Shown: positions 27,097-58,820, counted from the first letter of the stretch. The stretch: DNA of 64,000 bases from an uncultured Pseudomonadota bacterium (GCA_963749075.1 CAVVLJ010000016.1:448001-512000), one strand, 5' to 3'. Notes: generated from the sequence alone by a model not told the origin. Numbers and translations: made by a program.

Positions 27097-27462
27097 ATGG
27101 CTACACGCGAAAACCCGCAACCGGGCGTCGGCATCGTGCGCGTCGCCGACGGGCGCGGGCGCAGGCTCGGCTTCAAGCGGCCGACCATTCTCGACCGCCT
27201 GCGGCTCTTCGAGCTCATCGGCGGCGAGAGCGCGGAGAATCCCGCCTACCTCGGCGTCGCGGGCACGGCTTTCTGCCTCGTGGAGATCGACGGCGAGCCG
27301 CTGGCGCCGGCCAACAGCCGGCGCGAGCTCGAGACGCGCGCGATCATGATCGGCGACGAGGGATTCCTCGCGGCGGGCCGCGTGGTCGCGGAGCAGTTCA
27401 CCGCACCGGGCCCGGACGAGCGCCAGGAGGCGCAAGCGGAAGTCCTACGCTCGCCGCCGTAA
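27097..27462 (+). CDS. Tail assembly chaperone paralogue (copy 1)
   Basis: VRVADGRGRRLG..P..LDRLRLFEL.G...AEN..YLG...DGE.L......ELE.R....GDEG..AAGR, clearly homologous to 46041-46484. Confidence 0.75.
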   Translation: MATRENPQPGVGIVRVADGRGRRLGFKRPTILDRLRLFELIGGESAENPAYLGVAGTAFCLVEIDGEPLAPANSRRELETRAIMIGDEGFLAAGRVVAEQFTAPGPDERQEAQAEVLRSPP

Positions 27463-27480
27463 GCGCGAGCGCATTCGTAC

Positions 27481-27509
27481 TTGATTTGTTCAAACATCCA
27501 CCCTAGGTT
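27481..27509 (+). promoter_or_regulatory. Sigma70-like internal promoter for cassette A1
   Basis: TTGATT-17-TAGGTT; same ttc..acttgatttgttc context as 46681. Confidence 0.45.
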
Positions 27510-27545
27510 GAATGAACGTCGATCCGCGCAGCACCGGAAAGCCGG

Positions 27546-28367
27546 GTGCCGAGGCGGTCGGCGCAAGCCTGGCGGAGTGGTGCCGTGGGTTGGCGGCGAT
27601 TCATCGCGCGCGCAGCGAGGGGGAGGGCGGCGACGGATGGCGCTGACGGCGGCGCGGCGCGGGCGCGACCCCGCCGCCGCCGCTGGGCCGCGGCCGCGCT
27701 CGGTGCGCTGGCGCTCGCCGCGCTGTGGTGGCTCCTCGTGCGCGAGAGCGCGCCCGCGACCCTCGACGTCGATATTACGGACACGCCCACGCCGGGGAGC
27801 CCCGTCACGCATCTCAGGATCCCGAGGCCTTACTTCTTTTGGGCGATGATGCCCGACGCGCGCGAGGAGCCCCTCGTGGAGCTCGTCGCCTATCTGCCCG
27901 GCCTTCTCTCGGAGAAGGATGCGAAGCGCGCCGGCTACCCGACCGTCCGGGAGGTCGTCAACGGCATCAAGCTGCCGTCGGACAACCAAGTGTTCATCAC
28001 CGTCGAACAGTCCGTGCCGGACCTTGTGAATAAATTCTTTCATGTGCTGACCGCGCGGCCAGAGGTCAAGTTCGATGGTGCGCGAGACGGCACGTATCAG
28101 GTCTATACCATCACGAAGAAGAATTTTTCGGGGAATTACTTCTCCGACCCATTGCAGGGCGAATATCTCGGGCCGATCGGCCGCGACAATCTTTTCATTG
28201 AGTGCGGCTCTCTAAATATGTCGCCAGACGATACTGGCTGCGAAGTCTATACCCAATTCAGCGACAAGCTGGAAATGCGCTTCTCCGTCACCCGAAGCCG
28301 TCTTGCCGAATGGCCGAGCGTGGAGGAGAAGGTGAAGAAGCTCGTGGCATCCTTCGTGGTCGAGTGA
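27546..28367 (+). CDS. Single-pass membrane protein, putative immunity protein A1-i (start uncertain)
   Basis: TM (WAAAALGALALAALWWLLV), two Cys, C-terminal RSRLAEWPSVEEKVKKLVASF; tandem paralogue. Confidence 0.7.
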   Translation: MPRRSAQAWRSGAVGWRRFIARAARGRAATDGADGGAARARPRRRRWAAAALGALALAALWWLLVRESAPATLDVDITDTPTPGSPVTHLRIPRPYFFWAMMPDAREEPLVELVAYLPGLLSEKDAKRAGYPTVREVVNGIKLPSDNQVFITVEQSVPDLVNKFFHVLTARPEVKFDGARDGTYQVYTITKKNFSGNYFSDPLQGEYLGPIGRDNLFIECGSLNMSPDDTGCEVYTQFSDKLEMRFSVTRSRLAEWPSVEEKVKKLVASFVVE

Positions 28368-28417
28368 GTGCTGCAAGGCGGGGAGAGCCGGCGACCGGAA
28401 CACGGTAAGGGTCGGCG

Positions 28418-29152
28418 ATGGGGATATTCGGAGGCACGGGAAAGTTTCCGCAGAAGTCGCGCCGCCGCTGGGCCGCGGCCGTGCTCGGTGCGCTGGCGCT
28501 CGCCGCGCTGTGGTGGCTCTTCGTCTGCGAGAGCGCGCCCGCGATCCTCAACGTCGATATCACGGACACGCGTACGCCGGGGAGTCCCGTCACGCACCAC
28601 AGGATCCCGAAGGCGTATTTGGACCGCTCGATGATTCCCGATGCCCGCGAGCAGCCCCTCGTGGAGCTCGTTGCATATCTCCCTGACCTCCTTTCGGAAG
28701 AGGACGCGAAGCGCGCGGGCTACCCGATCGTTCGCGAAGTCGTCGGCCGCTTCTCGCTGCCGTCGGATAATCGTGTCGATTTGACTGTGCGGCGGTCCGT
28801 GCCGGAAGGCGTCATTAAAGACCTTCACGCGCTGATCAAAGACGATCACGCCAGGTTCGATGGCGTGCGAGGCGGCGCGTACGAGGTCTACACTATCACC
28901 AAGAGGAATTTCTCGGGGAACTACCTCCCGGACCCGAGCCAGGGCGAATATCTGAAGCCGATTGGCCGCGACGATCTATTCATCGCGTGCCGCTCCCTCA
29001 ATATGGCACCCGAAAATGCGAGCTGCGACATTTACACCCAGTTCAGCGGCAAACTGGAAATCCGTTTTCTCGTCACGCGCAGCCGGCTTGCTGAATGGCC
29101 GAGCGTCGAGCGGAAGGTGAGGAGGCTGGTGTCATCCTTCGTGGTGCAGTGA
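28418..29152 (+). CDS. Putative immunity protein A1-ii
   Basis: Paralogue of 27546 with divergent central segment. Confidence 0.75.
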   Translation: MGIFGGTGKFPQKSRRRWAAAVLGALALAALWWLFVCESAPAILNVDITDTRTPGSPVTHHRIPKAYLDRSMIPDAREQPLVELVAYLPDLLSEEDAKRAGYPIVREVVGRFSLPSDNRVDLTVRRSVPEGVIKDLHALIKDDHARFDGVRGGAYEVYTITKRNFSGNYLPDPSQGEYLKPIGRDDLFIACRSLNMAPENASCDIYTQFSGKLEIRFLVTRSRLAEWPSVERKVRRLVSSFVVQ

Positions 29153-29199: not shown

Positions 29200-29940
29200 G
29201 TGATGGGGATATTTGGGGGCACGGGGAAGGTTCCACGGAGAGCGCGCCATCGCCGCCGGGTTGCGGTCGCGCTCGGCGCGCTGGCGCTTGTCGCGTTGTG
29301 GTGGTTCCTCGTGCGCGAAAGCGCGCCTGCGATCCTCAACGTCGATATCACGGACACGCGCACGCCGGGGAGCCCCCTCACGCATCTCAGGATCCCGAGG
29401 GCGTATTTGGATCGGTCGATGCTTCCCGACGCGCGCGAGCAGCCCCTCGTGGAGCTCATCGCCTACCTGCCCGGCCTCATCACGGAGGAAGAGGCGAAGC
29501 GAGCCGGTTACCCCACCGCGCGAGCGGTCGTCGATGGCATCAAGTTGATGACGGATGACGAGCTCCCGATCACTCTCTACAACTCCGTGCCAGACGGGGT
29601 GAGCAAGTCCTTCCACGGAATGATCGGGGAGCGAGACGTGAGGTTCGACGGCATACGAGACGGCACCTACGAAGTCTATACGATCACGAAGAGGAATTTC
29701 GCCGGGAATTACTTGCCAGATCCGAGTCAGGGCGAATATCTGAAGCCACTGGGCCGCGACGATCTTTTCGTCGAGTGTCCCTCCCTCAATATGCCCCCCG
29801 AATATACACGCTGCAATTTTTATATCCAATTTAGCGATCGTCTGGAAATCCTATTCATACTCGGGCGCAATCGTCTAGCGGAATGGCCGAGCGTCGAGGC
29901 GAAGGTGAAGGAGCTGGTGGCATCCTTTGTGGTCGAGTAA
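29200..29940 (+). CDS. Putative immunity protein A1-iii
   Basis: Paralogue of 27546 and 28418; directly upstream of the putative effector. Confidence 0.75.
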   Translation: MMGIFGGTGKVPRRARHRRRVAVALGALALVALWWFLVRESAPAILNVDITDTRTPGSPLTHLRIPRAYLDRSMLPDAREQPLVELIAYLPGLITEEEAKRAGYPTARAVVDGIKLMTDDELPITLYNSVPDGVSKSFHGMIGERDVRFDGIRDGTYEVYTITKRNFAGNYLPDPSQGEYLKPLGRDDLFVECPSLNMPPEYTRCNFYIQFSDRLEILFILGRNRLAEWPSVEAKVKELVASFVVE

Positions 29941-29986: not shown

Positions 29987-31309
29987 ATGCCCGAGCAAAG
30001 CAAACGTCTTACCGAGGCGGATCTGGCGAGACTCAAGGCACTCCTCGACGCCCACGACCGCGGCGGTTTCTACGTCGAATATTGGCGCCTCACCGGCAGC
30101 GAGGAAGGCCTGCTGCAGGCCAACGTCGCCACCTTCAGCGGCTACATTGGCGGCATCGCGCTGAGCGTCAACATCGATCTCCAAAATGACCTGAAGGCGC
30201 GATATAAGGGGTTATTTGAAATATCTCAGGATGTGGCGAAATCCTTCTATGCCGCTGTGGAAACCGACGTCCGTGCCGGCGGGACCGGCCACCTGACGGA
30301 TCTTGCAGCGATAGACAGCGCCAAAAAAGCTTGGGAGGACCTGGTTCTCTCGAGATTCTTTCCCGGCAATCCGATCGACGCTTTTATCCATGCCATTCAC
30401 GGCGACTTCAGCAGGCTTGACGAGATCGTATCCCCGGGATCGGGTTACGCCCTTGCCGGCTATCTCGCGGAGCTCTACGGCTGGCGCTATGGCAAGCGGG
30501 CGTCCGACTTCGAAGGTCTCGCCGGCTATACCACGAAGATGGTGGAAGGCCCCGGCGGCCAGCGGATCAAGACCATCCTCGATCCCTCGGGCAAGACGGT
30601 GTTCGTCGAGAGCCCGCACCAGTATTTTCAAGACGTGCTGCCCGACATCGACCAACCGGACGCACAGCTCCCGTACAGCTTAAGCCGCTTCAAGGAATTT
30701 GACCGGGAATTTCGCGTCGAGGCGGATGAGAGCCATTATCCCTTCGGACCGGAGCACGAGCTCTGGCGGCCGCTGCCGCCCGGCATCGCCGACCGCGACC
30801 GCGCGAGCCAGGCGGCGCCGACCATGCCGGCTCCCGCACCCTTGCCCGAGCCGCCGCCCTTGCCGCCCTGGGGCGAGGACTTCCACGAGCTCATGCAGGA
30901 GCGCGGCCGGCACTTCCTCGGGCTCAGCCCGCGCCAGGCCATGTGGACCGGCGACGGAGACGGCGATGCCGCAGCGCAGTTCGCCTCCTTCGATCCCGAT
31001 GGCGCGAGTCCCGTCGGCGTATCGCTTGCGGAAGCTGACGCCGACGGCGAGGAGCCGGATGACGATGGCGAGCCGGACGGTCAGCCGCTGGCGAAGCTGG
31101 ACCGCTCCCTCGACGGCATCGCCCGGCAGCTCGGGGAGATCATCGCCGGCCTCGACGCCCAGTTGGCGCTGCGCCGGCGGCGCGCGCGCGAGATCGTCCG
31201 TGACGTCGAGGCATGGTTCGAGCGCGAGGCGAACAAGCCGCGGAACTCCTCCTGGCGCTACGACTTCCGGCGCACCTACACCCCGCCGGGTCCGGTGCCG
31301 CCGATGTGA
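29987..31309 (+). CDS. Putative effector A1: variable N-domain, Pro/Asp linker, conserved C-terminal tag
   Basis: C-terminus EANKPRNSSWRYDFRRTYTPPGPVPPM matches 48497-49990; N-termini unrelated. Confidence 0.7.
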   Translation: MPEQSKRLTEADLARLKALLDAHDRGGFYVEYWRLTGSEEGLLQANVATFSGYIGGIALSVNIDLQNDLKARYKGLFEISQDVAKSFYAAVETDVRAGGTGHLTDLAAIDSAKKAWEDLVLSRFFPGNPIDAFIHAIHGDFSRLDEIVSPGSGYALAGYLAELYGWRYGKRASDFEGLAGYTTKMVEGPGGQRIKTILDPSGKTVFVESPHQYFQDVLPDIDQPDAQLPYSLSRFKEFDREFRVEADESHYPFGPEHELWRPLPPGIADRDRASQAAPTMPAPAPLPEPPPLPPWGEDFHELMQERGRHFLGLSPRQAMWTGDGDGDAAAQFASFDPDGASPVGVSLAEADADGEEPDDDGEPDGQPLAKLDRSLDGIARQLGEIIAGLDAQLALRRRRAREIVRDVEAWFEREANKPRNSSWRYDFRRTYTPPGPVPPM

Positions 31310-31851: not shown

Positions 31852-33213
31852 ATGACCAAGCTGAGCAAGATCGAGCGCGCGGCCCTTCCCGACAGCGCCT
31901 TCGCCGTGCCGGGGAAGCGCAAGCTCCTCATCGAGGACGCGAGCCACCTGCGCTTCGCCTGGGACGAGCTCGAGCGCACGCAGGACCTCACCGAGGCTGA
32001 GCGCGAGGAGGCGCGCCGGCGCATCCTCGCGCGGGCGCGCGAGCTCGGCATCGACACCAGCGGCTGGCTGCGCCTTAAGACCATGAGCCTCGAGCTCGGC
32101 GCGCTCGCGGCCATGAGCCTCGCCGTGCCGGCGACGCCCGATCACCCGAACAAGCTCGCCTTCTCGGGCGTGCTCGCCAAGATCGGCGAGCCCTCCGACC
32201 GCGCCGCCTGCGGCAGCCTCGGCCGCCGCGTGCAGCTCGCCCCCGCCGCCGTCGAGGCCGCACTCCCCACGCTCCTCGGCATGGCGGTCGATCTCGCTGC
32301 CGGCCTCGACGGCCACGACATCGCGCGCAAGATCGGCGTCATCACCGGCGCCAACGTGGCGGGCAACGAGCTCCGCATCGAAGGCTTTTTCTACGCCGCC
32401 GACTTCCCGGAGGAGATCGCGCGCATCCGCGCCGACAAGGCCGCCATGGGCTTCAGCTTCGAGGCCCAGCGCATCCTCGTCGAGGATTTGGAAGCCGATC
32501 CGCTGGTCATCACGGCGTGCGTCTTCACCGGGGCCGCCGTCTTGAGGAAGGACAAGGCGGCCTTCACCACCACCCGATTGGCGGCGCGCGCCGCAGAGGA
32601 GACGGAGATGGATGCGAACGCAGTTCTCGAGAGGATCGAGGCGCTCGGCAAGACGGTCGAGCGCCTCGCGCAGGCGGTTGCCGAGTTGAAGGGCGCCGGG
32701 TCCGCCCCGGGCACGCTCGCGGCGGCCGAGGCGAACGGGCGCGTGCGGCCCTACGCCGAGCGGCTGAACGCGCTCGCCGCCGACATGGAAGAGGGCGGCA
32801 TCGGCAGCGATCCGAGGCGCGGCCACGCCGCCGCCTTGCGCCAGGTGGCGGACGCGCTCATGGCCGATGCCGCCGAGGGGCGCCTGCCGAGCGTCTATCA
32901 CCGCCTCGAGGCGCGCGGCGAGAACGCCGCCGAGGCGCGGCTCGCCCGTCTCGAGGGCAGCGTCGCCAGCTTGGCGACGCTCCTCAAGGATCTCAAGGCG
33001 CAAGGCGCCTCGGCCGCCGGCACCGCGCCCGAGCGCAAGACCATCCCGCCCGCGGTGGGGGCGCTCCTCGCCAAGGCCAACCTCACGCTGCCGCTTGGCG
33101 ACGGCAAGCTCTCGGTGCAGCAGGTCGACGAGGCGCTCGGCAAGACGAACTTCACCGTCAACCAGAAGCTCCAGGTGAAGAACGTGCTGGCCCACGCCGG
33201 CATGCTGCACTGA
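31852..33213 (+). CDS. Prohead protease/scaffold-like protein with DUF6582-like N-terminus
   Basis: ERAALPDSAFAVPGKRKLLIEDASH N-domain; H..RKIGVIT, MGFSFE, FTGAAVL; coiled-coil C-half; directly upstream of capsid. Confidence 0.75.
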   Translation: MTKLSKIERAALPDSAFAVPGKRKLLIEDASHLRFAWDELERTQDLTEAEREEARRRILARARELGIDTSGWLRLKTMSLELGALAAMSLAVPATPDHPNKLAFSGVLAKIGEPSDRAACGSLGRRVQLAPAAVEAALPTLLGMAVDLAAGLDGHDIARKIGVITGANVAGNELRIEGFFYAADFPEEIARIRADKAAMGFSFEAQRILVEDLEADPLVITACVFTGAAVLRKDKAAFTTTRLAARAAEETEMDANAVLERIEALGKTVERLAQAVAELKGAGSAPGTLAAAEANGRVRPYAERLNALAADMEEGGIGSDPRRGHAAALRQVADALMADAAEGRLPSVYHRLEARGENAAEARLARLEGSVASLATLLKDLKAQGASAAGTAPERKTIPPAVGALLAKANLTLPLGDGKLSVQQVDEALGKTNFTVNQKLQVKNVLAHAGMLH

Positions 33214-33247: not shown

Positions 33248-34228
33248 ATGGCCGAGTTCATGGAAATCAAGGCCGCAGCCGACTTCCTCGGCAACGGCGC
33301 CATCGAGATCAACCGCTACGAGAGCGAGATCTACGACATCTGCCGGCGCGGCTCGCCGACGCTGCAGCGCCTGCCGAGCGTGCCCGCCTCGGGCGCCCCG
33401 CACCGCTACTTCGAGCAGACCGCTGTGGCGCAGGCGCAGTTCACCGACCCGCGCAACATCTCGGCCACGGCCTCGGGCCCCAACCGCGTCGAGCGCTCGG
33501 CCGTCATCAAGGCGATCGTCGGGCAGACCAACCTCTCGCTCTTCGACGTGGACGTGACGCGCCAGCAGGGCCAGTTCGCCTATGTCGAGGCCAAGGACAT
33601 CGAGGACATCGTGAGCGGCATCGAGCTCGCGCGCGCCTCGAGCGTGTGGAGCGGCAACGACACCTCGCTCACCACGCCCACCACCAACCAGTACATGGGC
33701 CTCCTCTCCCAGATCGCGCAGCAGTTCACCGTGGCTCCGGGCGCCTCGATCATCGACGGCATCAAGGCGGCGGTGGCCCAGATGGTGGCCAACCAGACCT
33801 ACAAGGTGATGCCGAGCTGCATCTACGTGAACCCGCTTCTGGGCGACTACATCGACCGCGAGGCCAAGGCGACCGAGGTGACGCTCGGCCAGATGAACGT
33901 CGGCATCGGCCTCCTGGTCTCGACCATCAACACCCAGGCGGGTGCCCTTCCCATCGTGCCCGATCCCTTCCTTCCCTTCGTCACCACGGCGCAGTATGGC
34001 TTCGCGGCGCCGCCCACCGGCTTCCGCAACTACTTCGTCGCCATCCTGACCGAGGGCGCGGTCGAGATGCCCTACGTGCACGGCGGCGACGGCAACCCCA
34101 ACCCGCGCATCTTCCAGCTCGGGCTGCTCGGCGGCCTGCAGGGCCAGTACATCGGCATCAAGTTCGACTGCGTCATCGCCAAGGGTGCCTCCTACGCCCA
34201 TTCGGTGGTGGCCGTGCAGCGGCCGTGA
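33248..34228 (+). CDS. Major capsid protein
   Basis: 326 aa after the scaffold gene, strong RBS, highly biased codons, HK97-like layout. Confidence 0.75.
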   Translation: MAEFMEIKAAADFLGNGAIEINRYESEIYDICRRGSPTLQRLPSVPASGAPHRYFEQTAVAQAQFTDPRNISATASGPNRVERSAVIKAIVGQTNLSLFDVDVTRQQGQFAYVEAKDIEDIVSGIELARASSVWSGNDTSLTTPTTNQYMGLLSQIAQQFTVAPGASIIDGIKAAVAQMVANQTYKVMPSCIYVNPLLGDYIDREAKATEVTLGQMNVGIGLLVSTINTQAGALPIVPDPFLPFVTTAQYGFAAPPTGFRNYFVAILTEGAVEMPYVHGGDGNPNPRIFQLGLLGGLQGQYIGIKFDCVIAKGASYAHSVVAVQRP

Positions 34229-34391: not shown

Positions 34392-34778
34392 ATGAAGAAC
34401 CTCGGGCGCCGAATCTTGCTGACCGCGGCTGTCGTGGGCCTCGTCCTCCCGTGGCGCGCACCGCCGTCGCTCGGCGGCGACAAGTTCGACGGCCGCCAGT
34501 TCCACAGCGGCGAGGAGCTTTACAACTGGTGCCGCTCGAATGATCCGACGGACCGCCAGGCGTGCGAGGTCTACGTGTGCGGTGTCCTGGACACCTGGAC
34601 CACCGCATATCTCGACTCACGTGCTTCGCCTTATCGCATTTGCATTCGCGGTCGGCCGGAATGCCGCGAGCTGAGCGATGCCGTCCTTAAGTACCTTGAA
34701 GAGCATCCGGCCGACCGGCACGCTCCGGCCGCCGAGGTCACGGAATATGCGCTGCAACAAGCGTTCATCTGTCCGTGA
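34392..34778 (+). CDS. Rap1a/Tai4-like immunity protein 1
   Basis: Signal peptide; SGEELYNWC...ACEVYVCGVLD...IC...V.KYL..HP...A....AL..AF.CP pattern. Confidence 0.8.
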   Translation: MKNLGRRILLTAAVVGLVLPWRAPPSLGGDKFDGRQFHSGEELYNWCRSNDPTDRQACEVYVCGVLDTWTTAYLDSRASPYRICIRGRPECRELSDAVLKYLEEHPADRHAPAAEVTEYALQQAFICP

Positions 34779-34782
34779 GACG

Positions 34783-35165
34783 ATGAAGAAGCGATTGGCG
34801 CGGATCATGCTTCTCGTTGCGGCCGCAAGCACGGCGGCCGCGTCGAGCGGCGCGCAGCTTGGTCACGGCAGCGAAGTCCGGAAGCCTTGGCTCTACGAGA
34901 TGCCGGAATTCTATAGCTGGTGCCGTTCGCCGGACCCGCGCGGCCAGCAGGCCTGCAAGACCTATGTGTGCGCCGTAGCGGACGCATTGGCGGCGGAATG
35001 CCTATTCGCCAAAACTTGGCCTCATCCGTTCTGCCTGCCTGCCGGGAGCTGAGCAAGGTGGTGCTGCGGCACCTCAAGGAGAATCCAATCGAGCTCAACT
35101 CGATCGTGTCTGACGTGGTCGGATACGCGCTCAAGGAGAAGTTTCCCTGCAACGCGGGCAACTGA
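34783..35165 (+). pseudogene. Rap1a-like protein 2, frameshifted near 35045
   Basis: FYSWC..ACKTYVCAVAD..FCLP then ELSKVVLRHLKENP..ALKEKFPC in another frame. Confidence 0.65.
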
Positions 35166-35718
35166 CGGCCGGCCCTGCCCAATGCGGCATTGAATGCCTG
35201 AACGATGCCAATCCCCAACGGGACGAGGAACGCGCGGCGGCCCAAGCACGGTGAATGACGGCATCGCGAGGTCGCGCAATATGCTCTACAGCGCGGCATG
35301 GAACGTTCAGCTCGCGGCGACCGTCCCGGCCTGGTTAGCGGTTGCCGCGGCACTACTGGGATTCCTCGAGGCCGCGGTCGAAGATATGCCGGAGTGGTTC
35401 ACCGAACCGCCGGTGTGGCCGGACTTCCCGCATCCTGCTGCCGCGCGGCGCTGGAATCCCGAGAGACCGGCTGGCGGCACGATAACGATCCCGATCCCCT
35501 GAAGGCTCGGCCATGTTCGTCTATCTCCACGGCGCGCGGCAGCAGGTGGGGCGCCGCACGCTCTTCGAGGATCGTCCACGGCGTCGAGGCGGCGGTCGCC
35601 AAAATGGTCGCCGACCGGACGTGCAGCCGGCCGTGGCACTTGATCGCCGGAGGTGCCCGTCCTAAAAGGATACGTACCGCAAAGACGCACAACCTGGGAC
35701 GCGGCCGGGTGCTGCAGG

Positions 35719-36117
35719 ATGAAGAACCTCGGGCGCCGAATCTTGCTGATCGCTGTCGCGGCATGCGCGGCGATGACAGCGCATGCGCAGCGGAACGACG
35801 AGCAGGACGGTTGGCCGTATTTCAGCGGCGAGGAGCTTTATGGCTGGTGCCGCTCGGGCGACGTCGCCGATCGCCGGGCCTGCGAGATCTATGTGTGCGG
35901 CCTGAGCGACGGGATGGCCACCGCGCTGATGATCAACCACAAGCGGCCGTACCGCATCTGCCTGCGGCACGGCATGACCTGCGGGCCTGTCAGCGAGGTG
36001 GTCGTGAAGTACCTCGAGGCGCATCCGGCCGACCGCGCGCGGCCGGCGTCCGAATTGGCCGGCGAGGCGCTGAGGGACGCCTTCCCCTGCCACGGCCGTT
36101 TTTGGATCGACGAATGA
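35719..36117 (+). CDS. Rap1a/Tai4-like immunity protein 3
   Basis: Paralogue of 34392 (MKNLGRRILL start; ALRDAFPC end). Confidence 0.8.
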   Translation: MKNLGRRILLIAVAACAAMTAHAQRNDEQDGWPYFSGEELYGWCRSGDVADRRACEIYVCGLSDGMATALMINHKRPYRICLRHGMTCGPVSEVVVKYLEAHPADRARPASELAGEALRDAFPCHGRFWIDE

Positions 36118-36506: not shown

Positions 36507-36611
36507 CGCTGCTTGGCCGGCGTCAGCGCGGAAGCAACGCTCACTCATCGAAGCTCGTACTGGCCGACCGCTTCGTCAGTCAGCGAATCGCTGTGCGGGG
36601 TGTGCTATCTG

Positions 36612-43034: not shown

Positions 43035-43041
43035 TTGTGAC

Positions 43042-46680: not shown

Positions 46681-46708
46681 TTGATTTGTTCCTGTCTTGC
46701 GCTATAAT
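46681..46708 (+). promoter_or_regulatory. Sigma70-like internal promoter for cassette A2
   Basis: TTGATT-16-TATAAT. Confidence 0.55.
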
Positions 46709-48423: not shown

Positions 48424-48496
48424 CCGGCCTGCGCGCGGCCCACGCCGGCTGATCGACGACCGCGAACCGACGCCCGGGCTCCTGAGGCATCATCCC

Positions 48497-50076: not shown

Positions 50077-50838
50077 ATGCGGCCCTACGACGGGGCAGAG
50101 CGCACGAGACGGGAGGGGTTAGGGTTTCGGCGCGGCCTCGCCGCCGCCGCGCTGCTGACGGTCCTCGCCCTAGCAGCGCCGGCTGCCGCGCGCTACGGCG
50201 ATTTCGACTTCTGGGGCCGCACTTGGCCGCTGCCGATCTATGTGCCGGTGTGGAGCGCCGACGCGGCGGTCTGCCAGCGCATCGTGAAGGCGCTCAATGG
50301 TGCCCGGCGGCCGTCGCTGTCGCTATATAGCAATAAGATATTCCTCCGCTGGCATGACCATCCGGCATACCCTCGCAAGAACGGCACTGAGTGGAAGCTG
50401 GGGGAAGACTACGGCCGTTGGATGGAGGTGCCGCTCTTCAACGACGGTAGGCCGGTCATCGCGCTCAAGGTCATCTCTCCAGGCGCGCATTTCGTGCAGG
50501 AGGTCTTCTATGTCTTTGACGATCTCGCCTACTACCGCTCCCAGGACTGGCTGAAGGGCAAGCTGTGGGAAGACCCAAGTGTTCTGCAGCCGATCGAGCC
50601 GTTCCTGGGCAAGCAATTCTACACGCTGATGCCGCTGCCGAGGACAATCAAGGATTACCATTACTGGAGTCTCGATTGGATTGGCAGTGACGAGGAGACG
50701 AATATCGCAGATTTTAATGGCCGATTATACGAAGTCATCAGGAGGCCATCTGATGAGGCCATTCTTATTCTATATTTTTCCGAGGAACGCAGAGGACATG
50801 CGGTTTGTCTCATCGGGCCGAAGAAACTGGTTCGATGA
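50077..50838 (+). CDS. Exported protein, putative lysozyme-effector immunity B1
   Basis: Signal peptide (AAA-RYGDFDFWGR); paralogue of 53797 and 56337. Confidence 0.7.
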   Translation: MRPYDGAERTRREGLGFRRGLAAAALLTVLALAAPAAARYGDFDFWGRTWPLPIYVPVWSADAAVCQRIVKALNGARRPSLSLYSNKIFLRWHDHPAYPRKNGTEWKLGEDYGRWMEVPLFNDGRPVIALKVISPGAHFVQEVFYVFDDLAYYRSQDWLKGKLWEDPSVLQPIEPFLGKQFYTLMPLPRTIKDYHYWSLDWIGSDEETNIADFNGRLYEVIRRPSDEAILILYFSEERRGHAVCLIGPKKLVR

Positions 50839-50880
50839 GGCCTACCAGGCTCTCGATTTACGCGAGAAGAGGACTGCGTC

Positions 50881-52533
50881 ATGGCTGACCTGCCGCCCAC
50901 CGGCAATTACGACAAGGCCGCTCGGTACAAGAGTTTCCGCAACGAGCTCATAGGGCAGGCCGAGAACCCAAATCTCGCAAGGGGACTGATCAGCAGCCCA
51001 CCGTAGTCGACGGCCATCTGACGCTTGGCTTCGGTTACGACCTCGCGACGCGCCGCTCGAATCCCGAGGGGATCCTCGCCGACCTGGCGTTGGCCGGCAT
51101 TGCGCTCACGGTCCAACAGACCGCGGCGATCCTCTACTATGGCGGCAAACCGAATTCGGTCATCCGGGGCTATCTCGACGATCTCGCCGCGTTCGGAACG
51201 ACGGTCACCGACGACGACCGCAAGTTCGTCGAGAATTTGACTGCGCAGGATCGGACAGATGAGGGCCTCGGTCACCTCCTGTCCGACCTCCTGATCACGA
51301 AGCCGCAGGGCACGGCGCTGCTCGAGATCGCCGTCTCGGAGAAGGAGAAGCGGCTCGACAGGATCATCGAGGAGCGTGCGAAGAAGCTCAGGAAGAAGGA
51401 TAAGGGCCCTGAGGCGGAGCGGCTCGAGCAGTTGACGCAGCTCACCGACCGGCGCGCGGTGCTGGTCGATATGCTCTACGAGACGGCGAGCCTCCTCGGT
51501 CCCAGGCTCCTCCACGCGCTCGGTATGGGCGATGCGGCCGCGGCGGCGGTCGAGATCGCCTTCTTCAGCAACAAGGACCCGGTCGACAACAGCGGCGACG
51601 ACCCGCGCGACCGCACGCGCGCCGAGAAGTTCCTCGGCGGCGCGCTCGAGCCGCGCACGGAGGAGGAGGCGCGGGCGTTCCTCCGCGCGCTCGCGGAGCG
51701 CTCCGGCGATCTGGCCGAGGCCCTGGCGAAACGACGATTTGCCAATGAGGGCGTTGAGGGGGATTACCGCGCTGCCGTCGGCAAGCTCGCCAACGTGGCG
51801 CTGCGCCGGCTCGGCGTGGCGGCGACGATCGCTTTGAGCGACCGCGGCCGCCTCGCGGTGCAACAGGCGGTGCCGCTCGACCGCTTCGCCGAGGCCTTCG
51901 GCCTCACGGCGCTCGAGGTGGCGCTCGTCAACCCCGAGCTCTTCCCGACCGCACCCGACCAGTGGGCGCCGACCATGCTGAGCGTGGGCGCCGCCCCGCA
52001 TCTGCCGACCGCGGCGGAGCGGGCGGCGCTCGAGCGGACGCTGCGGGATGCCGGGCCGCTCCTGGCGCCCGAGCGGTACGAGGAGCTGCGCCGGCGCTAT
52101 CTCGACAATCTGCATCCGCCGCCGCGGGGCCAAGCCGAGCTGCCCGGCGGCGGCCCGTCGCTGGCCGTGGTGCCGCGCGCGGCGCCCGGAGCTCGCGCTC
52201 GCGCTCGAGGCGGCGCTGCCGCCGCCGCAGCCGTGGTCCGCGGCCTTTGCGCGCGACGCCGAGCTGATTTGGAGCGCGCCGGTCCAGGCGCTCCTCCCGC
52301 GCGACGTCCGGGACGCCTGGCTTCGCTTTGAGGGCGGGCTCTCCGAGGAGGAGGAGGCAGCACTCCGGGTGCTGCCGGCTCCGCCGCCGCGGGGCTGGGG
52401 TGTTGCCGCCCGCCGGCGCGCGGGACCCCGTCTCGACGTGGCGGCGCTCGACCGCATCATCGCGAAGATTGAGCGGGTGGTGCGCCTCTCCGAGATCCTC
52501 CTCGAGAAGGTCGAGGCGTGGAACCGCGGGTAG
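50881..52533 (+). pseudogene. GH24/lysozyme-like putative effector B1, frameshifts near 50980 and 52180
   Basis: Homologous over its full length to intact 54601-56235 but spread over three frames. Confidence 0.7.
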
Positions 52534-52608
52534 GGCTCCGCCCGGCTTAGGCGAGGCGTCGGCCCTCGGCAATTCTCCCCATTGAGCGCGCGCAAGGTGC
52601 GGGGCGGC

Positions 52609-53697
52609 ATGAGCGACACCTCATCGAGCGGCACCTCCGCAGGGCGGCGGCCGCGCGCGGCGATCGACGTGGCAGGGACGCGGCTCGGCGGCATCGTCGA
52701 GCTCGAGGTGAGCAGCAACAACCTGCAGTCGCCGGATAGCTTCCGCGCGACGCTTGCGCTCGGCGCGCTGCCGCAATCGCTCGGCCTCGCCTATTGGGCC
52801 CAAGCGAGCGACGTGAGCGTCGAGCTCTTCGCGGGCTTCGCGGTGGACGGCGGGACGGGCGCGGACGCCACGCTCGCGAGCCTCATCCAGGGCAAGGTCG
52901 ACCGCGTCGAGATCGATCCCGTCGCCGCCGAGCTGCACCTCTCCGGCCGCGACCTCTCGGCGCCGCTCTTCGACAACCGCACCAGCGAGAAGTTCGACAA
53001 CCAGACGAGCTCGGAGATCGCCACCACGCTCGCGGCGCGGCGCGGGCTCAATCCGGTCGTGACGGCGACCACCACGCTCGCGGGGCGCTATTACGAGATC
53101 GAGACGGCGCGGCTCACCCGCGAGGTGGTCGAGTGGGACCTCCTCTCCTATCTCGCGCGCGAGGAGGCCTTCGATCTCTTCGTGCGCGGCGGGAGCCTCT
53201 ATTTCCAGCCGCCGGCGGGAGAGGCCGCGGCCACCTATGCGGTGCAGTATACGCCGGCCGCCGGCGGCACGCCTGCGGGGGGCAACTTCATCGACTTGAA
53301 GCTCGCGCGCGACCTCACCCTCGCGGAGGGTGTGAGCGTCACGGTCAAGAGCTGGAACGCCAAGGATGGCACCGGCTTCGCGCTGAGCGCCCCGCAGGCA
53401 GGCACGGGCGGACTCAGCTACAGCTTCGTGCTGCCCGGCCTCAAGCCGAGCCAGGCGCTCAAGTTCGCCTCCTCGCAATATAATGAGATCACGCGGCACG
53501 AGCGCAGCCTCGCGGTGACGCTCCCCGGCGACACCTCGCTCACGCCGCAATCGCGCCTGACGCTCGAGGGCACCGGCAGCGGCTTCGACCAGAGCTACTT
53601 CATCACCGGCATCGAGCGCCGCTTCTCCTTCGAGGGCGGCTTCACAATGACCGTCTGCGCCAAGAACGTCTCGCCCGGCGGCGACCCCGCGGGCTGA
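52609..53697 (+). CDS. Baseplate hub / late control gpD-like protein
   Basis: GKVDRVE, LSGRDLSA, EWDLLSYLAREE.F, V.VKSWN, LPGD..L.P, FDQSYFI. Confidence 0.82.
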   Translation: MSDTSSSGTSAGRRPRAAIDVAGTRLGGIVELEVSSNNLQSPDSFRATLALGALPQSLGLAYWAQASDVSVELFAGFAVDGGTGADATLASLIQGKVDRVEIDPVAAELHLSGRDLSAPLFDNRTSEKFDNQTSSEIATTLAARRGLNPVVTATTTLAGRYYEIETARLTREVVEWDLLSYLAREEAFDLFVRGGSLYFQPPAGEAAATYAVQYTPAAGGTPAGGNFIDLKLARDLTLAEGVSVTVKSWNAKDGTGFALSAPQAGTGGLSYSFVLPGLKPSQALKFASSQYNEITRHERSLAVTLPGDTSLTPQSRLTLEGTGSGFDQSYFITGIERRFSFEGGFTMTVCAKNVSPGGDPAG

Positions 53698-53796: not shown

Positions 53797-54558
53797 ATGC
53801 GGCCGGGCGACGGGACGGAGCGCACGGGACGAGAGGGGTTGCGGCTTCGGCGCGGCCTCGCCGCCGCCGCGCTGCTGACGCTCGTCGCCATTGCAGCGCC
53901 CGCTGCCGCGCGCTACGGCGATTTCGACTTCTGGGGCCGCAGCTGGCCGCTGCCGATCTACGTGCCGGTGTGGAGCGCGGACGCGGCGGTGTGCGGGCGC
54001 ATCGTTAAGGCGCTCAACGCTGCCCGGCGGCCGTCGATGTCGCTCTACAGCAACAGGATTTTCCTCCGCTGGCAGGACTATCCGGCGGACGCGCGCACCA
54101 ACGGTCCCGATTGGCACCCATACCAAGACCATGCGCGCTGGATGGAGGTGCCATTCTTCAACGACGGCTGGCCGGTCATCGCGTTCAAGGTTATCTATGA
54201 GAGCAGCCGCTTCATCGACGAGCATCTCTACGTCTTCGACGATTTGGCCTACTACCGCTCCGAGGACTGGCTGACGGACAAGCTGCGGCAGAACCCGCGT
54301 GTATTGATGCCGATCGAGCCGTTCCTGGCCAAGCAGTTCTACACATTGATGCCGCTGCCGAAGACAATGAAGGATTACCATTATTGGAGTCTCGATTGGG
54401 TCGGGTATGATGAGGAGACGAATATAGCGAATATTGATGGCCGATTATATATAGTCATTAGGAGGCCGTCTGGTGAGGCCATTCTCGTATTATTGTTTTC
54501 CGAGGAACGCAAGGGGCGCGCAGTGTGTCTCATCGGGCCAAAGAAACTGGTTCGATGA
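53797..54558 (+). CDS. Exported protein, putative immunity B2
   Basis: Paralogue of 50077. Confidence 0.72.
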   Translation: MRPGDGTERTGREGLRLRRGLAAAALLTLVAIAAPAAARYGDFDFWGRSWPLPIYVPVWSADAAVCGRIVKALNAARRPSMSLYSNRIFLRWQDYPADARTNGPDWHPYQDHARWMEVPFFNDGWPVIAFKVIYESSRFIDEHLYVFDDLAYYRSEDWLTDKLRQNPRVLMPIEPFLAKQFYTLMPLPKTMKDYHYWSLDWVGYDEETNIANIDGRLYIVIRRPSGEAILVLLFSEERKGRAVCLIGPKKLVR

Positions 54559-54600
54559 GGCCTGCCGGGCTCTCGATTTACGAGAGAAGAGGGTTGTGGC

Positions 54601-56235
54601 ATGGCTAACTCGGCGCTCACCGGCAATCACGACGAGGCCAAACAGTACAAGAAATTCCGCAACGAGCTCATCGAGCAGGGCGAGAACCGGGACCTCGCAA
54701 AGGGGACTGATCAGCAGCCCACGGTAGTCGACGGTCATGTAACGCTCGGCTTCGGCTACGACCTGGCGACGCGGCGCGCGGATCCCTACGGGATTCTCGC
54801 CGACCTCGCCTCCGCCGGCATCGCCCTCACGGCCAAACAGACCGCGGCCATCCTCTTCTATGGCGGGGCGCCGATCGCCAGCATCCTGCACTATCTCGGC
54901 GTTCTCGCCGTCTGGACGACGGTCACCGACGACGACCGCAAGTTCGTTGAGAATTTGAGCGCGCAGGATCGGACGGATGAGGGCCTTGGCCACCTTCTGT
55001 CCGGCCTCCTGATCACGAAGCCGCAGGGCGTGGCGTTATTCGAGATCGCCGTTTCGGAGAAGGAGAAGAGGTTCGACGGGATCATCGAGGGGCTTCAGAA
55101 GGACCTCAAGAAACACGAGAAGGTCATTGAGGCGCAGCAGCTCGAGCGGCTCAAGCTGCTCTCCGACCAGCGCGCGGTGCTGGTCGATCTGCTCTACCAG
55201 ACGGAGCGTTTCCTCGGGCCGAGGCTCCGCGACGCGCTTATGGCGAACGACGCGATGGCGGCGGCGACCGAGATTGCCTTCTTCACCAATTCGGCAGGGA
55301 CGCAGCACGGCGACGAGCGCAACCTCGCGCGCTCCAGGGCGTTCCTCGGCCATGCCTTCGAGCCGACGACGGAGGCGGAGGCGCGGTCGGTCCTGCATGT
55401 TCTCGCCGAGCGGCAAGGAGACCTGGCGCAGACGCTGGCGTCACGGCGGCGTCACGGCAAGGTTCTGAAGGACTACCGCGACCAGGTGAGCGCCGCGGCC
55501 AACGCGGCGCTGCGCAGGCTCGGCGTGGCGACGACGGTCGCCTTGAGCGATAGCGGCCGCCTCGCGGTGCAACAGGCGGTGCCGGTCGACCGCTTCGCCG
55601 AGGCCTTCGGCCTCACGGCCCTCGAGGTGGCGCTCGTCAATCCCGAGCTTTTCCCGACGGCACCCGACCAGGGGGCGCCGACCATGCTGCGCGCGGGTGC
55701 CGCCCCGCATCTGCCGACCGCGGCGGAGCGGGCGGCGCTCGAGCGGACGCTACGAGATGCCGGACCGCTCCTGGCACCCGAGCGGTTCGAGGAGCTGCGC
55801 CGGCGCTATCTCGACAATCTGCATCCGCCGCGGCGCGGTCATGCCGAGCTGCCCGACGGCGCCCCGTCGCTGGCCGCGGCGCGGCTCGTGGCGCCGGAGC
55901 TCGAGCTCGAGGCGGCCCTGCCGCCGCCGCCGGCCGGGTCTGCCGCCTTCGCGCGCGACGCGGAGCTGACTTCGAGCGCGCCGGTCCAGACGCTCCTCCC
56001 GCGCGACGGCCGGGACGCCTGGCTTCGCCTTGAGAGCGGGCTCTCCGAGGCGGAGGCCGCGGTACTCTGGGCGCGGCCCGTTCCGCCGCCGCGGGGCTGG
56101 GGCGCCGCCGCAGGCCGGCGCGCGGCATCTCGCCTGAGCGCGGAGGCGCTCGACCGCATCATCGCGAAGATCGAGCGGGCGGTGCGCCTTTCCGAAATCC
56201 TCCTCGAGAAGGTCGAGGCGTGGAACCGCGGGTAG
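54601..56235 (+). CDS. GH24/lysozyme-like putative effector B2 (intact)
   Basis: GE...DGHVTLGFGYDL and QRAVLVDLLY...LGPRLRDAL..AATEI resemble T4-lysozyme/pesticin-fold motifs; C-terminal LDRIIAKIERAVRLSEILLEKVEAWNRG. Confidence 0.7.
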   Translation: MANSALTGNHDEAKQYKKFRNELIEQGENRDLAKGTDQQPTVVDGHVTLGFGYDLATRRADPYGILADLASAGIALTAKQTAAILFYGGAPIASILHYLGVLAVWTTVTDDDRKFVENLSAQDRTDEGLGHLLSGLLITKPQGVALFEIAVSEKEKRFDGIIEGLQKDLKKHEKVIEAQQLERLKLLSDQRAVLVDLLYQTERFLGPRLRDALMANDAMAAATEIAFFTNSAGTQHGDERNLARSRAFLGHAFEPTTEAEARSVLHVLAERQGDLAQTLASRRRHGKVLKDYRDQVSAAANAALRRLGVATTVALSDSGRLAVQQAVPVDRFAEAFGLTALEVALVNPELFPTAPDQGAPTMLRAGAAPHLPTAAERAALERTLRDAGPLLAPERFEELRRRYLDNLHPPRRGHAELPDGAPSLAAARLVAPELELEAALPPPPAGSAAFARDAELTSSAPVQTLLPRDGRDAWLRLESGLSEAEAAVLWARPVPPPRGWGAAAGRRAASRLSAEALDRIIAKIERAVRLSEILLEKVEAWNRG

Positions 56236-56264
56236 CATGCCGATGGACGCCTTCCTCAACCGGC
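55574..56264 (+). repeat. ~690-bp near-identical direct repeat, copy 1
   Basis: Matches 58130-58820, including the first codons of gpV (ATGCCGATGGACGCCTTCCTCAACCGGC). Confidence 0.92.
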
Positions 56265-56336
56265 CGAGCCCTGCCGCGCTGGCCGCATCGACGTTGACAG
56301 GATATATCTCATGTCGGTTATACAACCGACTATGGG

Positions 56337-57110
56337 ATGGAGGTCCCGATGCGGCCGTGCGGCGCGGCGGAACGGACGAAAGGAGAGGGGCTTCGGCGCC
56401 GCCTCGCCGCCGCCGTGCTGCTCGCGCTTCTCGCGGTCGCGGTGCCGGCCGCGGCGCGCTATGGCGATTTCGACTTCTGGGGCCGCACGTGGCCGCTCCC
56501 GATTTATGTGCCGGTGTGGAGCGCCGATGCGGCGGTGTGCCGGCGCATCGTGAAGGCGCTCAACGCGGCGCGGCAGCCATCGCGGTCGCTCTACAGCAAT
56601 AAGATCTTCCTGCGCTGGCAGGACCATCCGGCATACGCTCCCGCCGGCAGCGCCGATCGGAAGCTGGGCGACCCCTACGGCCGTTGGATGGAGGCACCGT
56701 TCTTCAACGACGGCAAGCCGGTCGTTGCGCTCAAAGTCATTTATGAGGGTGACCGCTTTGTCGTCGAGCATTTCTACGTCTTCGATGATCTCGCCTACTA
56801 CCAGTCCCAGGACTGGCTGGAGGGCAAGCTGTGGGAGGATCCGAGCGTGCTTCGGCCGATCGAGCCGTTCTTGAACAAGGCTTTCAACACGTTCATCGCG
56901 CTGCCGAAGACGACAATGGATTACGATTATTGGAACCGCACCGGGATCGGCAGCACCCAGGAGGTCAATCTCGCTCGCCTGGATGACAAGATCTACGCCG
57001 TGGTGAGGATGCCGGCATACGAGCGATTTCTCGTTCTGTATTTCACGGGCGACAGGCAGGGCCACCCGGTTTGTATCATCGGGCCGAAGAAGCGGGTCAG
57101 GTACAAATAG
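56337..57110 (+). CDS. Exported protein, putative immunity B3
   Basis: Paralogue of 50077 and 53797; upstream TTGACA at 56294. Confidence 0.72.
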   Translation: MEVPMRPCGAAERTKGEGLRRRLAAAVLLALLAVAVPAAARYGDFDFWGRTWPLPIYVPVWSADAAVCRRIVKALNAARQPSRSLYSNKIFLRWQDHPAYAPAGSADRKLGDPYGRWMEAPFFNDGKPVVALKVIYEGDRFVVEHFYVFDDLAYYQSQDWLEGKLWEDPSVLRPIEPFLNKAFNTFIALPKTTMDYDYWNRTGIGSTQEVNLARLDDKIYAVVRMPAYERFLVLYFTGDRQGHPVCIIGPKKRVRYK

Positions 57111-57152
57111 TGCAGACCCTTACGCGGTCTTTGCTCTAAGGAGGATTGCGGC

Positions 57153-58791
57153 ATGGCTGATCTGCCGCTCACTGGCAATTACGACAAGCCCGAGCGGTAC
57201 AAGAAATTCCGCGATGAGCTTATAGAGCAGGGCGAGAACCCCGATCTCGCAAAGGGGATTGATCAGTCACCCGTCGTGGTCAATGGCCATGTGACGCTCG
57301 GCTTCGGCTATGACCTGGCGACGCGGCGCTCGGAGCCCTACGGGATTCTCGCGGACCTGGCGGCGGCCGGGATCGCGCTCACGGTCCGACAGACCGCGGC
57401 GATCCTCTTCTATGGCGGCAAGTCAAATGCGGTCGTCCGGGGCTATCTCGACGATCTCGCGGCGTTCGGGACGACGGTCACGGACGAGGACCGGAAGTTT
57501 GCGGCGAGCTTGACTGCGCCGGATCGGACGGACGATCGGCTGGGCGATCTCCTGTCCGATCTCATGATCACGAAGCCGCAGGGCGAGGCGCTGCTCGAGA
57601 TTGCCGTTTCGGAGAAGGAGAAGCGGCTCGACAGGATCATCGAGGGGCTTGCGGAGGACCTCGAGAGGCAGGGGAGGGCGGATGAGGCGCGGACGCTCGA
57701 GCAGCGCATGCGGTTCACCGACCAGCGCGCGGTGCTGGCCGATCTGCTCTACCAGACGGAGCATTTTCTGGGGCCGAAGCTCCGCGACGCGCTCGTCGCG
57801 GGCGACGCGATGGCGGCGGCGGCCGAGATCGCCTTCTTCGCCAATTCCGCGGGGACGCAGCACGACGACGAGCGCAACCTCGCGCGCGCCAAGGCGTTCC
57901 TCGGCCATCCCTTCGAGCCGAAGACGGAGGCCGAGGCGCGGTCGGTCCTGCATGTGCTCGCCGAGCGGCAAGGAGACCTGGCGCAGGCGCTGGCGAGCCG
58001 GCGGTACGACGATCGCGTTCGGAAGAACTACAGCGACGAGGTGAGCGCTGCCGCCAATGCGGCGCTGCGCAGGCTCGGCGTGGCGACGACGGTCGCCTTG
58101 ATCGACAGCGGCCGCCTCGCGGTGCACGGAGGCGGTGCCGCTCGACCGCTTCGCCGAGGCCTTCGGCCTCACGGCCCTCGAGGTGGCGCTCGTCAATCCC
58201 GAGCTTTTCCCGACGGCACCCGACCAGGGGGCGCCGACCATGCTGCGCGCGGGTGCCGCCCCGCATCTGCCGACCGCGGCGGAGCGGGCGGCGCTCGAGC
58301 GGACGCTACGAGATGCCGGACCGCTCCTGGCACCCGAGCGGTTCGAGGAGCTGCGCCGGCGCTATCTCGACAATCTGCATCCGCCGCGGCGCGGTCATGC
58401 CGAGCTGCCCGACGGCGCCCCGTCGCTGGCCGCGGCGCGGCTCGTGGCGCCGGAGCTCGAGCTCGAGGCGGCCCTGCCGCCGCCGCCGGCCGGGTCTGCC
58501 GCCTTCGCGCGCGACGCGGAGCTGACTTCGAGCGCGCCGGTCCAGACGCTCCTCCCGCGCGACGGCCGGGACGCCTGGCTTCGCCTTGAGAGCGGGCTCT
58601 CCGAGGCGGAGGCCGCGGTACTCTGGGCGCGGCCCGTTCCGCCGCCGCGGGGCTGGGGCGCCGCCGCAGGCCGGCGCGCGGCATCTCGCCTGAGCGCGGA
58701 GGCGCTCGACCGCATCATCGCGAAGATCGAGCGGGTGGTGCGCCTTTCCGAAATCCTCCTCGAGAAGGTCGAGGCGTGGAACCGCGGGTAG
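57153..58791 (+). pseudogene. GH24/lysozyme-like putative effector B3, one frameshift near 58127
   Basis: N-part in ORF 57153, C-part in ORF 58135-58791; gtgcacggaggc here vs gtgcaacaggc in B2. Confidence 0.7.
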
Positions 58792-58820
58792 CATGCCGAT
58801 GGACGCCTTCCTCAACCGGC
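58130..58820 (+). repeat. ~690-bp near-identical direct repeat, copy 2
   Basis: Matches 55574-56264. Confidence 0.92.

Follow-up and report, generated by a model that had tools for sequence, protein, structure and literature searches.

Cassettes of candidate effectors with a C-terminal tag in a myophage late operon that has lost its tape measure

The stretch analysed here (GCA_963749075.1, CAVVLJ010000016.1:448001-512000; 64,000 nucleotides, hereafter the window, with positions counted from its first letter) comes from a soil alphaproteobacterium and carries late genes of a myovirus-type phage. We found this operon to be interrupted at four junctions by five cassettes, which together hold eight partner genes and five genes for larger proteins (Table 1). 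Two of the larger proteins have only a C-terminal module in common, which we call tag A and which was also found behind other, unrelated N-terminal domains. The operon has lost its tape measure gene and has kept the tail assembly chaperone (here TAC2) with its frameshift site, together with a second chaperone copy (TAC1). In our preferred reading the virion would carry the large proteins as effectors, most likely in the tail lumen, and the partners would confer immunity in the periplasm; we put it forward tentatively, as a possibility somewhat short of an even chance.

According to this reading, the product of a cassette (440-544 amino acids, aa) would begin with an enzyme-like warhead, continue in a disordered linker rich in Pro and Ala, and end in a conserved tag formed by an amphipathic helix. 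The tag would dock the protein in the virion, most likely in the tail lumen and baseplate hub, where the C-terminus of the tape measure sits, and the chaperone paralog that heads both tag-A modules would aid loading. Contraction of the sheath would expel the warhead into the periplasm of the target cell, and the partners would act as periplasmic inhibitors that protect the cells carrying the element. The cassettes have an anatomy that fits effector/immunity modules: a linker joins a predicted warhead to a conserved C-terminal helix, and the apparently periplasmic partners, kept by selection, are encoded upstream. The enzymatic or toxic activity of the window proteins, the binding of partner to effector, the docking of the tag and the activity of the particle are what we infer from sequence.

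Tag A and its carriers

All five cassettes named in the original prediction were recovered in place, and its description of a variable N-terminus and a conserved C-terminus held for cassettes 1 and 2. The 440-aa protein of cassette 1 and the 529-aa protein of cassette 2 are alike solely in their last ~107 aa, which are 48% identical. The description did not hold for the large proteins of cassettes 3-5 (family B), which are whole-length paralogs with N parts 64-74% identical. The 529-aa protein probably starts at 48497, which gives 497 aa. A HMMER profile of tag A, run against 1.84e9 representative proteins, matched P0010-P0013 besides the window pair (E 7e-18 to 3e-14), and the match lay at the extreme C-terminus in every case. 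The N-domain of the 440-aa protein is 29% identical to that of P0010 over 181 aa (E 2e-15) and was also found in P0017. The cluster members P0015 and P0019 have a Lipase_3 domain before the tag (28.8-28.9 bits, Pfam cut-off 22) with a GHSLGG motif, and weak PDB matches to class-3 lipases agree with this assignment. The N-domain of the 529-aa protein is unique, with no other carrier found. So tag A stands behind three unrelated N-domain types (440-aa/P0010, 529-aa and Lipase_3), one conserved module with exchangeable and unrelated domains, which is a hallmark of polymorphic systems. The reversed polarity that had been claimed for these proteins, with the conserved module at the C-terminus, is thereby supported.

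Tag A is very rare. Word-based searches of 5.8e9 proteins with tag A and with the N-domain of the 440-aa protein each returned the window's own proteins alone, and no tag A was found in 10 genomes of the same family. A search of 400 genomes of the class gave 10 weak matches (best E 7.4e-5, the rest at least 3e-3), which were judged to be coiled-coil noise, and P0014 (4095 aa), which matched the tag profile and has a sequence like that of a trimeric autotransporter adhesin, was also dropped as noise. Cluster look-ups showed that contigs of 36,302, 263,875 and 611,465 bp each encode tag-A and family-B proteins, and one alphaproteobacterial metagenome-assembled genome has two tag-A and two family-B proteins, so multi-cassette elements exist in a few other genomes. 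The proteins concerned are P0013, P0016 and P0023 on the 36,302-bp contig, P0017 and P0026 on the 263,875-bp contig and P0012 and P0024 on the 611,465-bp contig; P0002 and P0005 are encoded together on a contig of 28,284 bp. The tags of the tag-A and family-B proteins align weakly with each other (hhalign P 4.3e-4; reversed control 0.03), which suggests that tag A and the C-terminal amphipathic helix of family B may have a common origin.

Partner genes

The original prediction of exported or membrane-bound partners upstream of the large proteins was supported, since a single N-terminal hydrophobic segment is present in all eight partners (KD17 2.18-2.78). No such segment was found in the three intact large proteins. 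Read by eye, the family-B partners seem to have signal peptides ending in Ala-X-Ala and the other partners N-terminal anchors. The partners of cassettes 3-5 are 64-76% identical, and those of cassette 2 are distantly related to those of cassette 1. The partner paralogs have dN/dS values of 0.26-0.37 (0.51 for the cassette 2 pair), and selection on the large proteins of family B is more relaxed (0.48 and 0.74). These data support partners that probably face the periplasm and are under purifying selection. Partners are adjacent in all five window cassettes and lie directly upstream of the effector in seven of nine metagenome loci, the other two being cut off or too short upstream. Two cassette 1 partners had no match in Pfam or PHROG, two partners gave nothing meaningful against PDB sequences, and one partner gave no usable match in the ESM Atlas.

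These features also bear on a second explanation, with the same molecular anatomy, in which the large proteins would be enzymes (lysin, lipase) carried by the virion to breach the envelope during the phage's own entry. The partners, made from the prophage and acting in the periplasm, would then serve superinfection exclusion by inhibiting these enzymes when related phages come in. It would account for selection on the partners beside decay of the effectors, for the multiplication of the partner genes (3+2+1+1+1), for a promoter-like site of their own and for warheads that are predicted to aim at peptidoglycan or lipid. The promoter-like site is a sigma-70-like sequence at 46681-46708 (TTGATT, 16 nt, TATAAT; 10 of 12 positions), which lies in an AT-richer gap after the TAC2 -1 extension and upstream of the cassette 2 partners; about 1.9 such sites per region are expected by chance. 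However, one tail-associated lysin suffices for most phages, five cassettes with at least three warhead types look like an arsenal, and the Rap1a array described below points to inter-bacterial conflict. The element may also no longer be able to infect. We consider this explanation unlikely.

Family B and the sites of the cassettes

Homologues of family B are also few. Among the 5.8e9 proteins we found five and the window's own cassette 3 piece, nine short metagenome contigs carry the family, and the family-B alignment gave no locus in GTDB representatives or IMG/VR. In the metagenome loci L003-L005 the partner-effector pair lies between terminase and portal. In L006 and L008 it directly precedes the counterpart of a small window gene, located at 31371 ahead of the scaffold gene, a position that corresponds to the cassette 1 site of the window; L007 holds a tandem pair. 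These sites are not in tail modules. Because the junctions differ between closely related genomes, the cassettes move between junctions. In L005 the 3' end of the terminase gene is repeated directly on both sides of the cassette (1-100 and 2758-2857; 100 nt, 98% identical), which suggests that the cassette may be gained or lost by recombination between the repeats. The first and last 75 nt of L003 are identical (1-75 and 2752-2826), possibly because the assembly path was looped.

The sites also bring in the possibility of head-packaged cargo, in which the C-terminal helix would be a targeting peptide of the scaffold or encapsulin type that brings the protein into the procapsid, and ejection would take place together with the DNA or ahead of it. 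The head module is where cassette 1 and all positioned family-B relatives lie, and encapsulins and P22 scaffold fusions are known cases in which a C-terminal signal directs proteins into HK97-fold shells. However, the tags are unlike the C-termini of the window's scaffold-like proteins, four of the five window cassettes are in the tail/baseplate module and the chaperone link points to the tail. Packaging in the head seems very unlikely.

The AlphaFold model of the intact 544-aa protein had a predicted local distance difference test score (pLDDT) of 62.6, with residues 30-160 and 260-410 as the confident parts. VIA-align placed LysM-containing chains over residues 322-415, and the LysM-like stretch at residues 323-372 had a pLDDT >85. 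Foldseek searches of PDB and BFVD with the family-B models gave nothing at E<=0.001. With modest confidence, we read family B as probably peptidoglycan-directed; the reading of the 544-aa family as lysozyme-like plus LysM-like is weak.

A lost tape measure and a retained chaperone

In related loci the gene order is TerL-portal-small gene-scaffold-capsid-...-sheath-tube-chaperone-(160-180-aa gene)-tape measure-g45072-gpD-gpV. The tape measures of these relatives have 572-807 aa, with N- and C-terminal motifs common to seven. With tblastn, none of these seven had a match at E<1e-3 in the whole 5.49-Mb genome, and the 160-180-aa gene that precedes the tape measure in relatives was also not found. 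The absence of a tape measure, which had been claimed for the window, therefore extends to the rest of the genome. In the window, g45072 starts 13 nt after the tube gene and the chaperone comes later. One IMG/VR relative, L041, has ~1.3 kb between the chaperone and the g45072 homologue (8480-9547), and the sole ORF (open reading frame) in between (355 aa) reads like a non-coding translation; this is possibly another tape-measure loss.

TAC2 has a slippery heptamer (A_AAA_AAC) at 46457, and GC content at third codon positions shifts to the -1 frame in its extension, where it is near 0.9. Of 21 relatives examined, 20 (all 7 of one set and 13 of the 14 of another) had the heptamer and a conserved extension of 56-66 aa. 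With a slippery heptamer near the 3' end and a conserved -1 extension, TAC2 is a tail assembly chaperone of the G/GT type. Its setting is different from that in relatives, where the chaperone gene comes right after the tube gene: in the window TAC2 is displaced from the tube, and partner genes and a tagged effector come next in place of a tape measure. The window also has a second copy without frameshift in the head module. This copy, TAC1, is 50.5% identical to TAC2 over 99 aa and has neither the A_AAA_AAC site nor the frameshift extension. A chaperone paralog precedes both tag-A effectors, whereas none of the three family-B effectors has one. The gene of the 529-aa effector is at the position expected for a tape measure after TAC2, but two partner genes intervene.

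The strongest hint of a link between the tagged proteins and the tail is indirect: the tape measure is gone, the chaperone is kept, chaperone paralogs head the tag-A modules and the 529-aa protein is at the position of the tape measure. The C-terminus of a tape measure is anchored in the hub, and the protein exits through the tip. Such anchoring would explain why the tag is C-terminal. One could go further and propose that the tagged proteins stand in for the tape measure, so that a contractile particle with a head would use polymorphic enzymes as its payload and perhaps even as its ruler. A shared C-terminal, hub-docking helix would hold them, the duplicated chaperone would load them, and they would be fired into the periplasm of neighbours, for whose survival a matching partner would be needed. 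We regard this extension as doubtful and quite unlikely. No homology to the tape measures of the lineage was found, and the 544-aa model has globular domains and a disordered linker in place of the long continuous helix by which a tape measure would be recognised. A complex prediction of TAC2 (8-row alignment) with tag A (6-row alignment) had a score of 0.00 and gave no answer, which is not evidence either way.

Points against virion-borne effectors

Several observations weigh against our preferred reading of virion-borne effectors. At the level of the proteins, the 440- and 529/497-aa proteins had no sequence match in Pfam, PHROG or PDB, and the same searches with the 544-aa protein (Pfam, PHROG) and the family-B profile (PDB sequences) gave nothing meaningful. 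The VIA-align matches of the 544-aa model to GH24 lysozymes, including pesticin, had Z values of 5.0-5.7, which is the tool's noise range. A model of the family-B domain alone was worse (pLDDT 59) and matched 4evx alone at Z 4.9, and Phage_lysozyme was seen in one of ten family-B members at E 0.044, below threshold and among chance-level matches. For the tail, the docking site of the tag on the particle is itself a proposal, the window effectors have no similarity to the tape measures of the seven relatives or of Komagataeibacter phage phiKX1, and the head-module sites of all positioned family-B relatives fit a role in the tail lumen poorly. The tag-A alignment gave no locus in GTDB representatives or IMG/VR, and the expectation that the tag would recur in other tail clusters was thus not borne out. 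At the level of the element, two of the five large proteins are split by frameshifts and three are intact. Decayed host genes flank the element, and the ORFs tested between 9.7 and 73 kb included no gene for replication or lysogeny, save an integrase-family fragment. The capsid protein was found in none of 100 related genomes (five of the same genus; ten of the same family in all). The element may thus be decaying or dead. A search of the ESM Atlas with the 497-aa protein gave no usable match.

The absence from these 100 relatives means that the element is strain-specific and not a conserved locus like that of a gene transfer agent; a conserved, vertically inherited head-tail cluster was not seen. 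Together with the two frameshifted effectors, it means that we may be looking at a decaying prophage rather than a working weapon. In this respect the earlier proposal of a phage-tail toxin delivery system is weakened, and it stands as regards the polymorphic set with its C-terminal module, the partners and the loss of the tape measure.

The cassette 3 effector has two single-base indels, near 50979 and 52185, and contigs of two runs cover the first site without gaps. The single indel of the cassette 5 effector, near 58127, coincides exactly with the beginning of a 660-nt block that is 100% identical between cassette 4 (55574-56235) and cassette 5 (58130-58791); the block may be the product of recent gene conversion or of an assembly artefact at a repeat. 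A generally error-ridden assembly was rejected as the cause of the frameshifts, because six other gamma-glutamyltranspeptidase (GGT) genes of the genome are intact and the first cassette 3 indel was confirmed.

Frameshifts and missing genes are also what one would expect if the cassettes were ordinary morons in a decaying prophage. In that case they would be toxin/immunity-like or other accessory modules of the late operon whose products are not in the particle, and the shared C-terminus would serve oligomerisation or type I-like export. The different junctions in close relatives, the L005 and L003 repeats and the sigma-70-like site before the cassette 2 partners agree with this explanation, and so do the two broken effectors, the missing tape measure, lysogeny and replication genes and the strain-specific element, 24 of 24 IMG/VR relatives being without cassette proteins. 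However, the cluster ORFs scanned revealed no transporter gene, and the tag is highly conserved, unlike type I export signals. Moreover, the chaperone paralog was duplicated along with the tag-A module, and every known homologue was found either on a phage-like locus or on a contig where the other family is encoded as well. We consider the moron explanation rather unlikely.

Comparison with known systems

The closest described cases are Sle1 and Tme, effectors of actinobacterial contractile injection systems. They are reported to be tape-measure-related, phage-derived and modular cargo of the tube lumen with an exchangeable functional domain; an N-terminal coiled coil docks through a DUF4157 partner, the variable warhead is C-terminal, and one relative forms a toxin-antitoxin pair (PMC13277306; PMC11126660). 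The window proteins have the opposite polarity and no similarity to tape measures, and head genes are present. MuF proteins are described as polymorphic toxins of temperate phages with immunity genes, encoded in the head module near the portal (PMC5576092). Their conserved part, the MuF domain, is N-terminal, and the toxin part, which varies, is C-terminal; the polarity in the window is reversed, and Pfam found no MuF domain in the 440-, 529- and 544-aa proteins. Cargo of extracellular contractile injection systems (eCIS) such as PVC and Afp is reported to have N-terminal leaders and to depend on an AAA ATPase (PMC11495950; 10.1101/2023.11.13.566157). An eCIS is a contractile particle like a phage tail that delivers a protein payload, as is proposed for the window, and PAAR, gpV-, gpW- and gpJ-like baseplate parts are common to both. 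However, eCIS are without capsid genes and the window has terminase, portal and capsid genes, all with open frames, which also sets it apart from a headless tailocin. No ATPase family was matched among the cluster ORFs scanned (not every small ORF), and a tape measure, which an eCIS or tailocin would have, was not found for this lineage in the genome.

Type VI secretion systems (T6SS) with Tle lipases or Tae/Rap1a, muramidases and pesticin/Pim are cases in which periplasm-acting enzymes are paired with periplasmic immunity proteins. The window resembles them in its Rap1a domains, in the Lipase_3 warhead of relatives and in pesticin among the weak fold matches, this pesticin link being one of Z 5.6. 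It differs in having no T6SS genes and in effectors that are not fused to PAAR, VgrG or Hcp. In the literature, supplements aside, we found no description of C-terminally tagged phage-borne effectors, and the window set differs from the known systems in polarity, in its head genes and in having no known docking domain.

Known phage-linked payload systems dock N-terminally (MuF, PVC/Afp leaders, Sle1-type), and the module of the window is C-terminal. It is common to lipase, cell-wall-binding and other predicted warheads, in a phage operon without a tape measure but with a chaperone. If the tag is a loading signal, it would offer a new and compact means of equipping contractile particles with proteins, and the element would stand midway between a phage that infects and a tailocin that fires toxins. 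The partner families and three warhead types without known relatives are candidates for new enzyme-inhibitor pairs.

Structural backbone and genomic setting

PHROG and Pfam scans agreed with the original prediction of a myophage operon from terminase to baseplate with PAAR, all on the + strand (Table 1). Sheath, tube and baseplate with spike and PAAR are all present, as in a contractile particle. In phiKX1 and in 15 of 17 viral loci, the gene that follows the sheath gene matches the tube gene of the window. The g45072 protein corresponds to two adjacent phiKX1 genes immediately upstream of the gpD homologue, and its C-terminal stretch has weak PHROG matches to endolysins and baseplate hubs; the gpD-like protein matches the phiKX1 gene directly upstream of gpV. 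Searches with the capsid protein gave 24 IMG/VR contigs at 58-64% identity, none of which had cassette proteins or Rap1a at E<1e-5, and searches with the chaperone gave 17 further IMG/VR loci and phiKX1. The capsid proteins of the window and of metagenome locus L006 are 94% identical. A megablast of 34000-58900 against the phage collection gave no match, and parts of the window were present in two soil-metagenome runs.

Table 1 Features of the window and its surroundings
Feature	Position	Strand	Remarks
rRNA operon	1-4740		window start
Integrase-family fragment	11665-12378		separated from the cluster by host DNA
TerL	23717-25189	+	PHROG terminase large subunit, E 1.6e-31
Portal	25202-26545	+	PHROG, E 1.5e-39
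Cement-like small gene	26535		PHROG/Pfam scans
TAC1, second chaperone copy	27079-27462	+	phrog_20383, E 8e-15; heads cassette 1
Cassette 1, three partner paralogs	27546-28367, 28418-29152, 29200-29940	+	65-68% identical
Cassette 1, 440-aa effector	29987-31309	+	type-I N-domain, Pro/Ala-rich linker, C-terminal tag A
Scaffold-like protein	31852-33213	+	Pfam DUF6582
Major capsid protein	33248-34228	+	Pfam SU10_MCP
Rap1a array	34392-37025	+	tandem duplication: two Rap1a-like genes, then another gene, twice
Head-tail adaptor	37789		PHROG/Pfam scans
Tail sheath	40028-41584	+	phrog_23, E 5.7e-49
Low-GC (~51%) insert between sheath and tube	41618-44493	- and +	HicB-like/HTH (helix-turn-helix) gene on -, three genes on + (one HTH)
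Tail tube	44618-45058	+	phrog_12993, E 5e-42
g45072 protein	45072-46004	+	phrog_21362, E 3.5e-78
TAC2, tail assembly chaperone	46026-46484, -1 extension open to 46633	+	phrog_20383, E 3e-19
Cassette 2, two partner paralogs	46880/46997-47743, 47644-48423	+	46% identical
Cassette 2, 529-aa effector	48401-49990	+	unique N-domain, Pro-rich linker, tag A
Cassette 3	50077-52533	+	signal-peptide partner (to 50838), frameshift-split family-B effector
gpD-like baseplate hub/tail protein	52582-53697	+	phrog_52, E 1.2e-30
Cassette 4	53797-56235	+	signal-peptide partner 53797-54558, intact 544-aa family-B effector 54601-56235
Cassette 5	56337-58791	+	partner 56337-57110, family-B effector split by one frameshift
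gpV baseplate spike	58793-59392	+	PF04717
PAAR	59400-59657	+	PF05488, E 1.6e-22
gpW, gpJ, gpI, first fibre genes	downstream of PAAR, to 64000	+	PHROG and Pfam
Endolysin-like gene	68943-69476 (window-equivalent, outside the window)		phrog_873, E 1.5e-53

The host genome has 5.49 Mb in 23 contigs with a GC content of about 68%. The phage late genes form a single + strand cluster of roughly 50 kb, from ~21 to ~71.7 kb (window-equivalent), and no paralogs of the cluster proteins were found elsewhere in the genome. An amidohydrolase gene at ~71.8 kb was read as the start of host DNA. The claim that replication and lysis modules are missing thus holds for replication among the ORFs tested and fails for lysis, given the endolysin-like gene beyond the end of the window. 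We conclude that the element represents the late genes (virion and lysis) of a prophage lineage of the myovirus type, left stranded in the genome of one soil alphaproteobacterium.

The window starts with an rRNA operon, in whose 16S-23S spacer (743-1443) tRNA-Ala was the sole tRNA called and no tRNA-Ile was called. Host genes follow, several of them decayed, and a run of decayed host genes at 14883-20495 lies immediately left of the element. In this run the GGT gene (~15033-16372) is in at least five frame pieces, the S58 peptidase has its C-terminal part alone in an open frame, and an overlapping ORF pair at 17580-19199 is possibly a third decayed gene. On the other side, methyltransferase and family-2 glycosyltransferase genes lie among the tail-fibre genes (L001:1070-2306, window-equivalent 65070-66306), with a Gly_rich_2 fibre-like gene and a DUF4376 gene downstream.

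Rap1a array and low-GC insert

The Rap1a-like genes that had been noted beside the capsid gene were confirmed. They are four paralogs by BLAST and encode proteins with a basic, hydrophobic N-terminus, and both genes tested passed PF18602 (34392-34778, E 1.7e-17; 35653-36117, E 4.7e-18), with scores of 64.1 and 65.9 bits against a cut-off of 27.7. Repeats D11, D16 and D18 back the duplication of the array, and no Tae4/Ssp1-like amidase was seen near it. The genes that close each array unit (35194-35502 and 36513-37025) have a similar Pro-rich end motif. The Pfam matches in the low-GC insert were sub-threshold (HicB_lk_antitox at 25.4 bits, and HTH families), and judging from its gene content this insert may be a toxin-antitoxin or defence moron.

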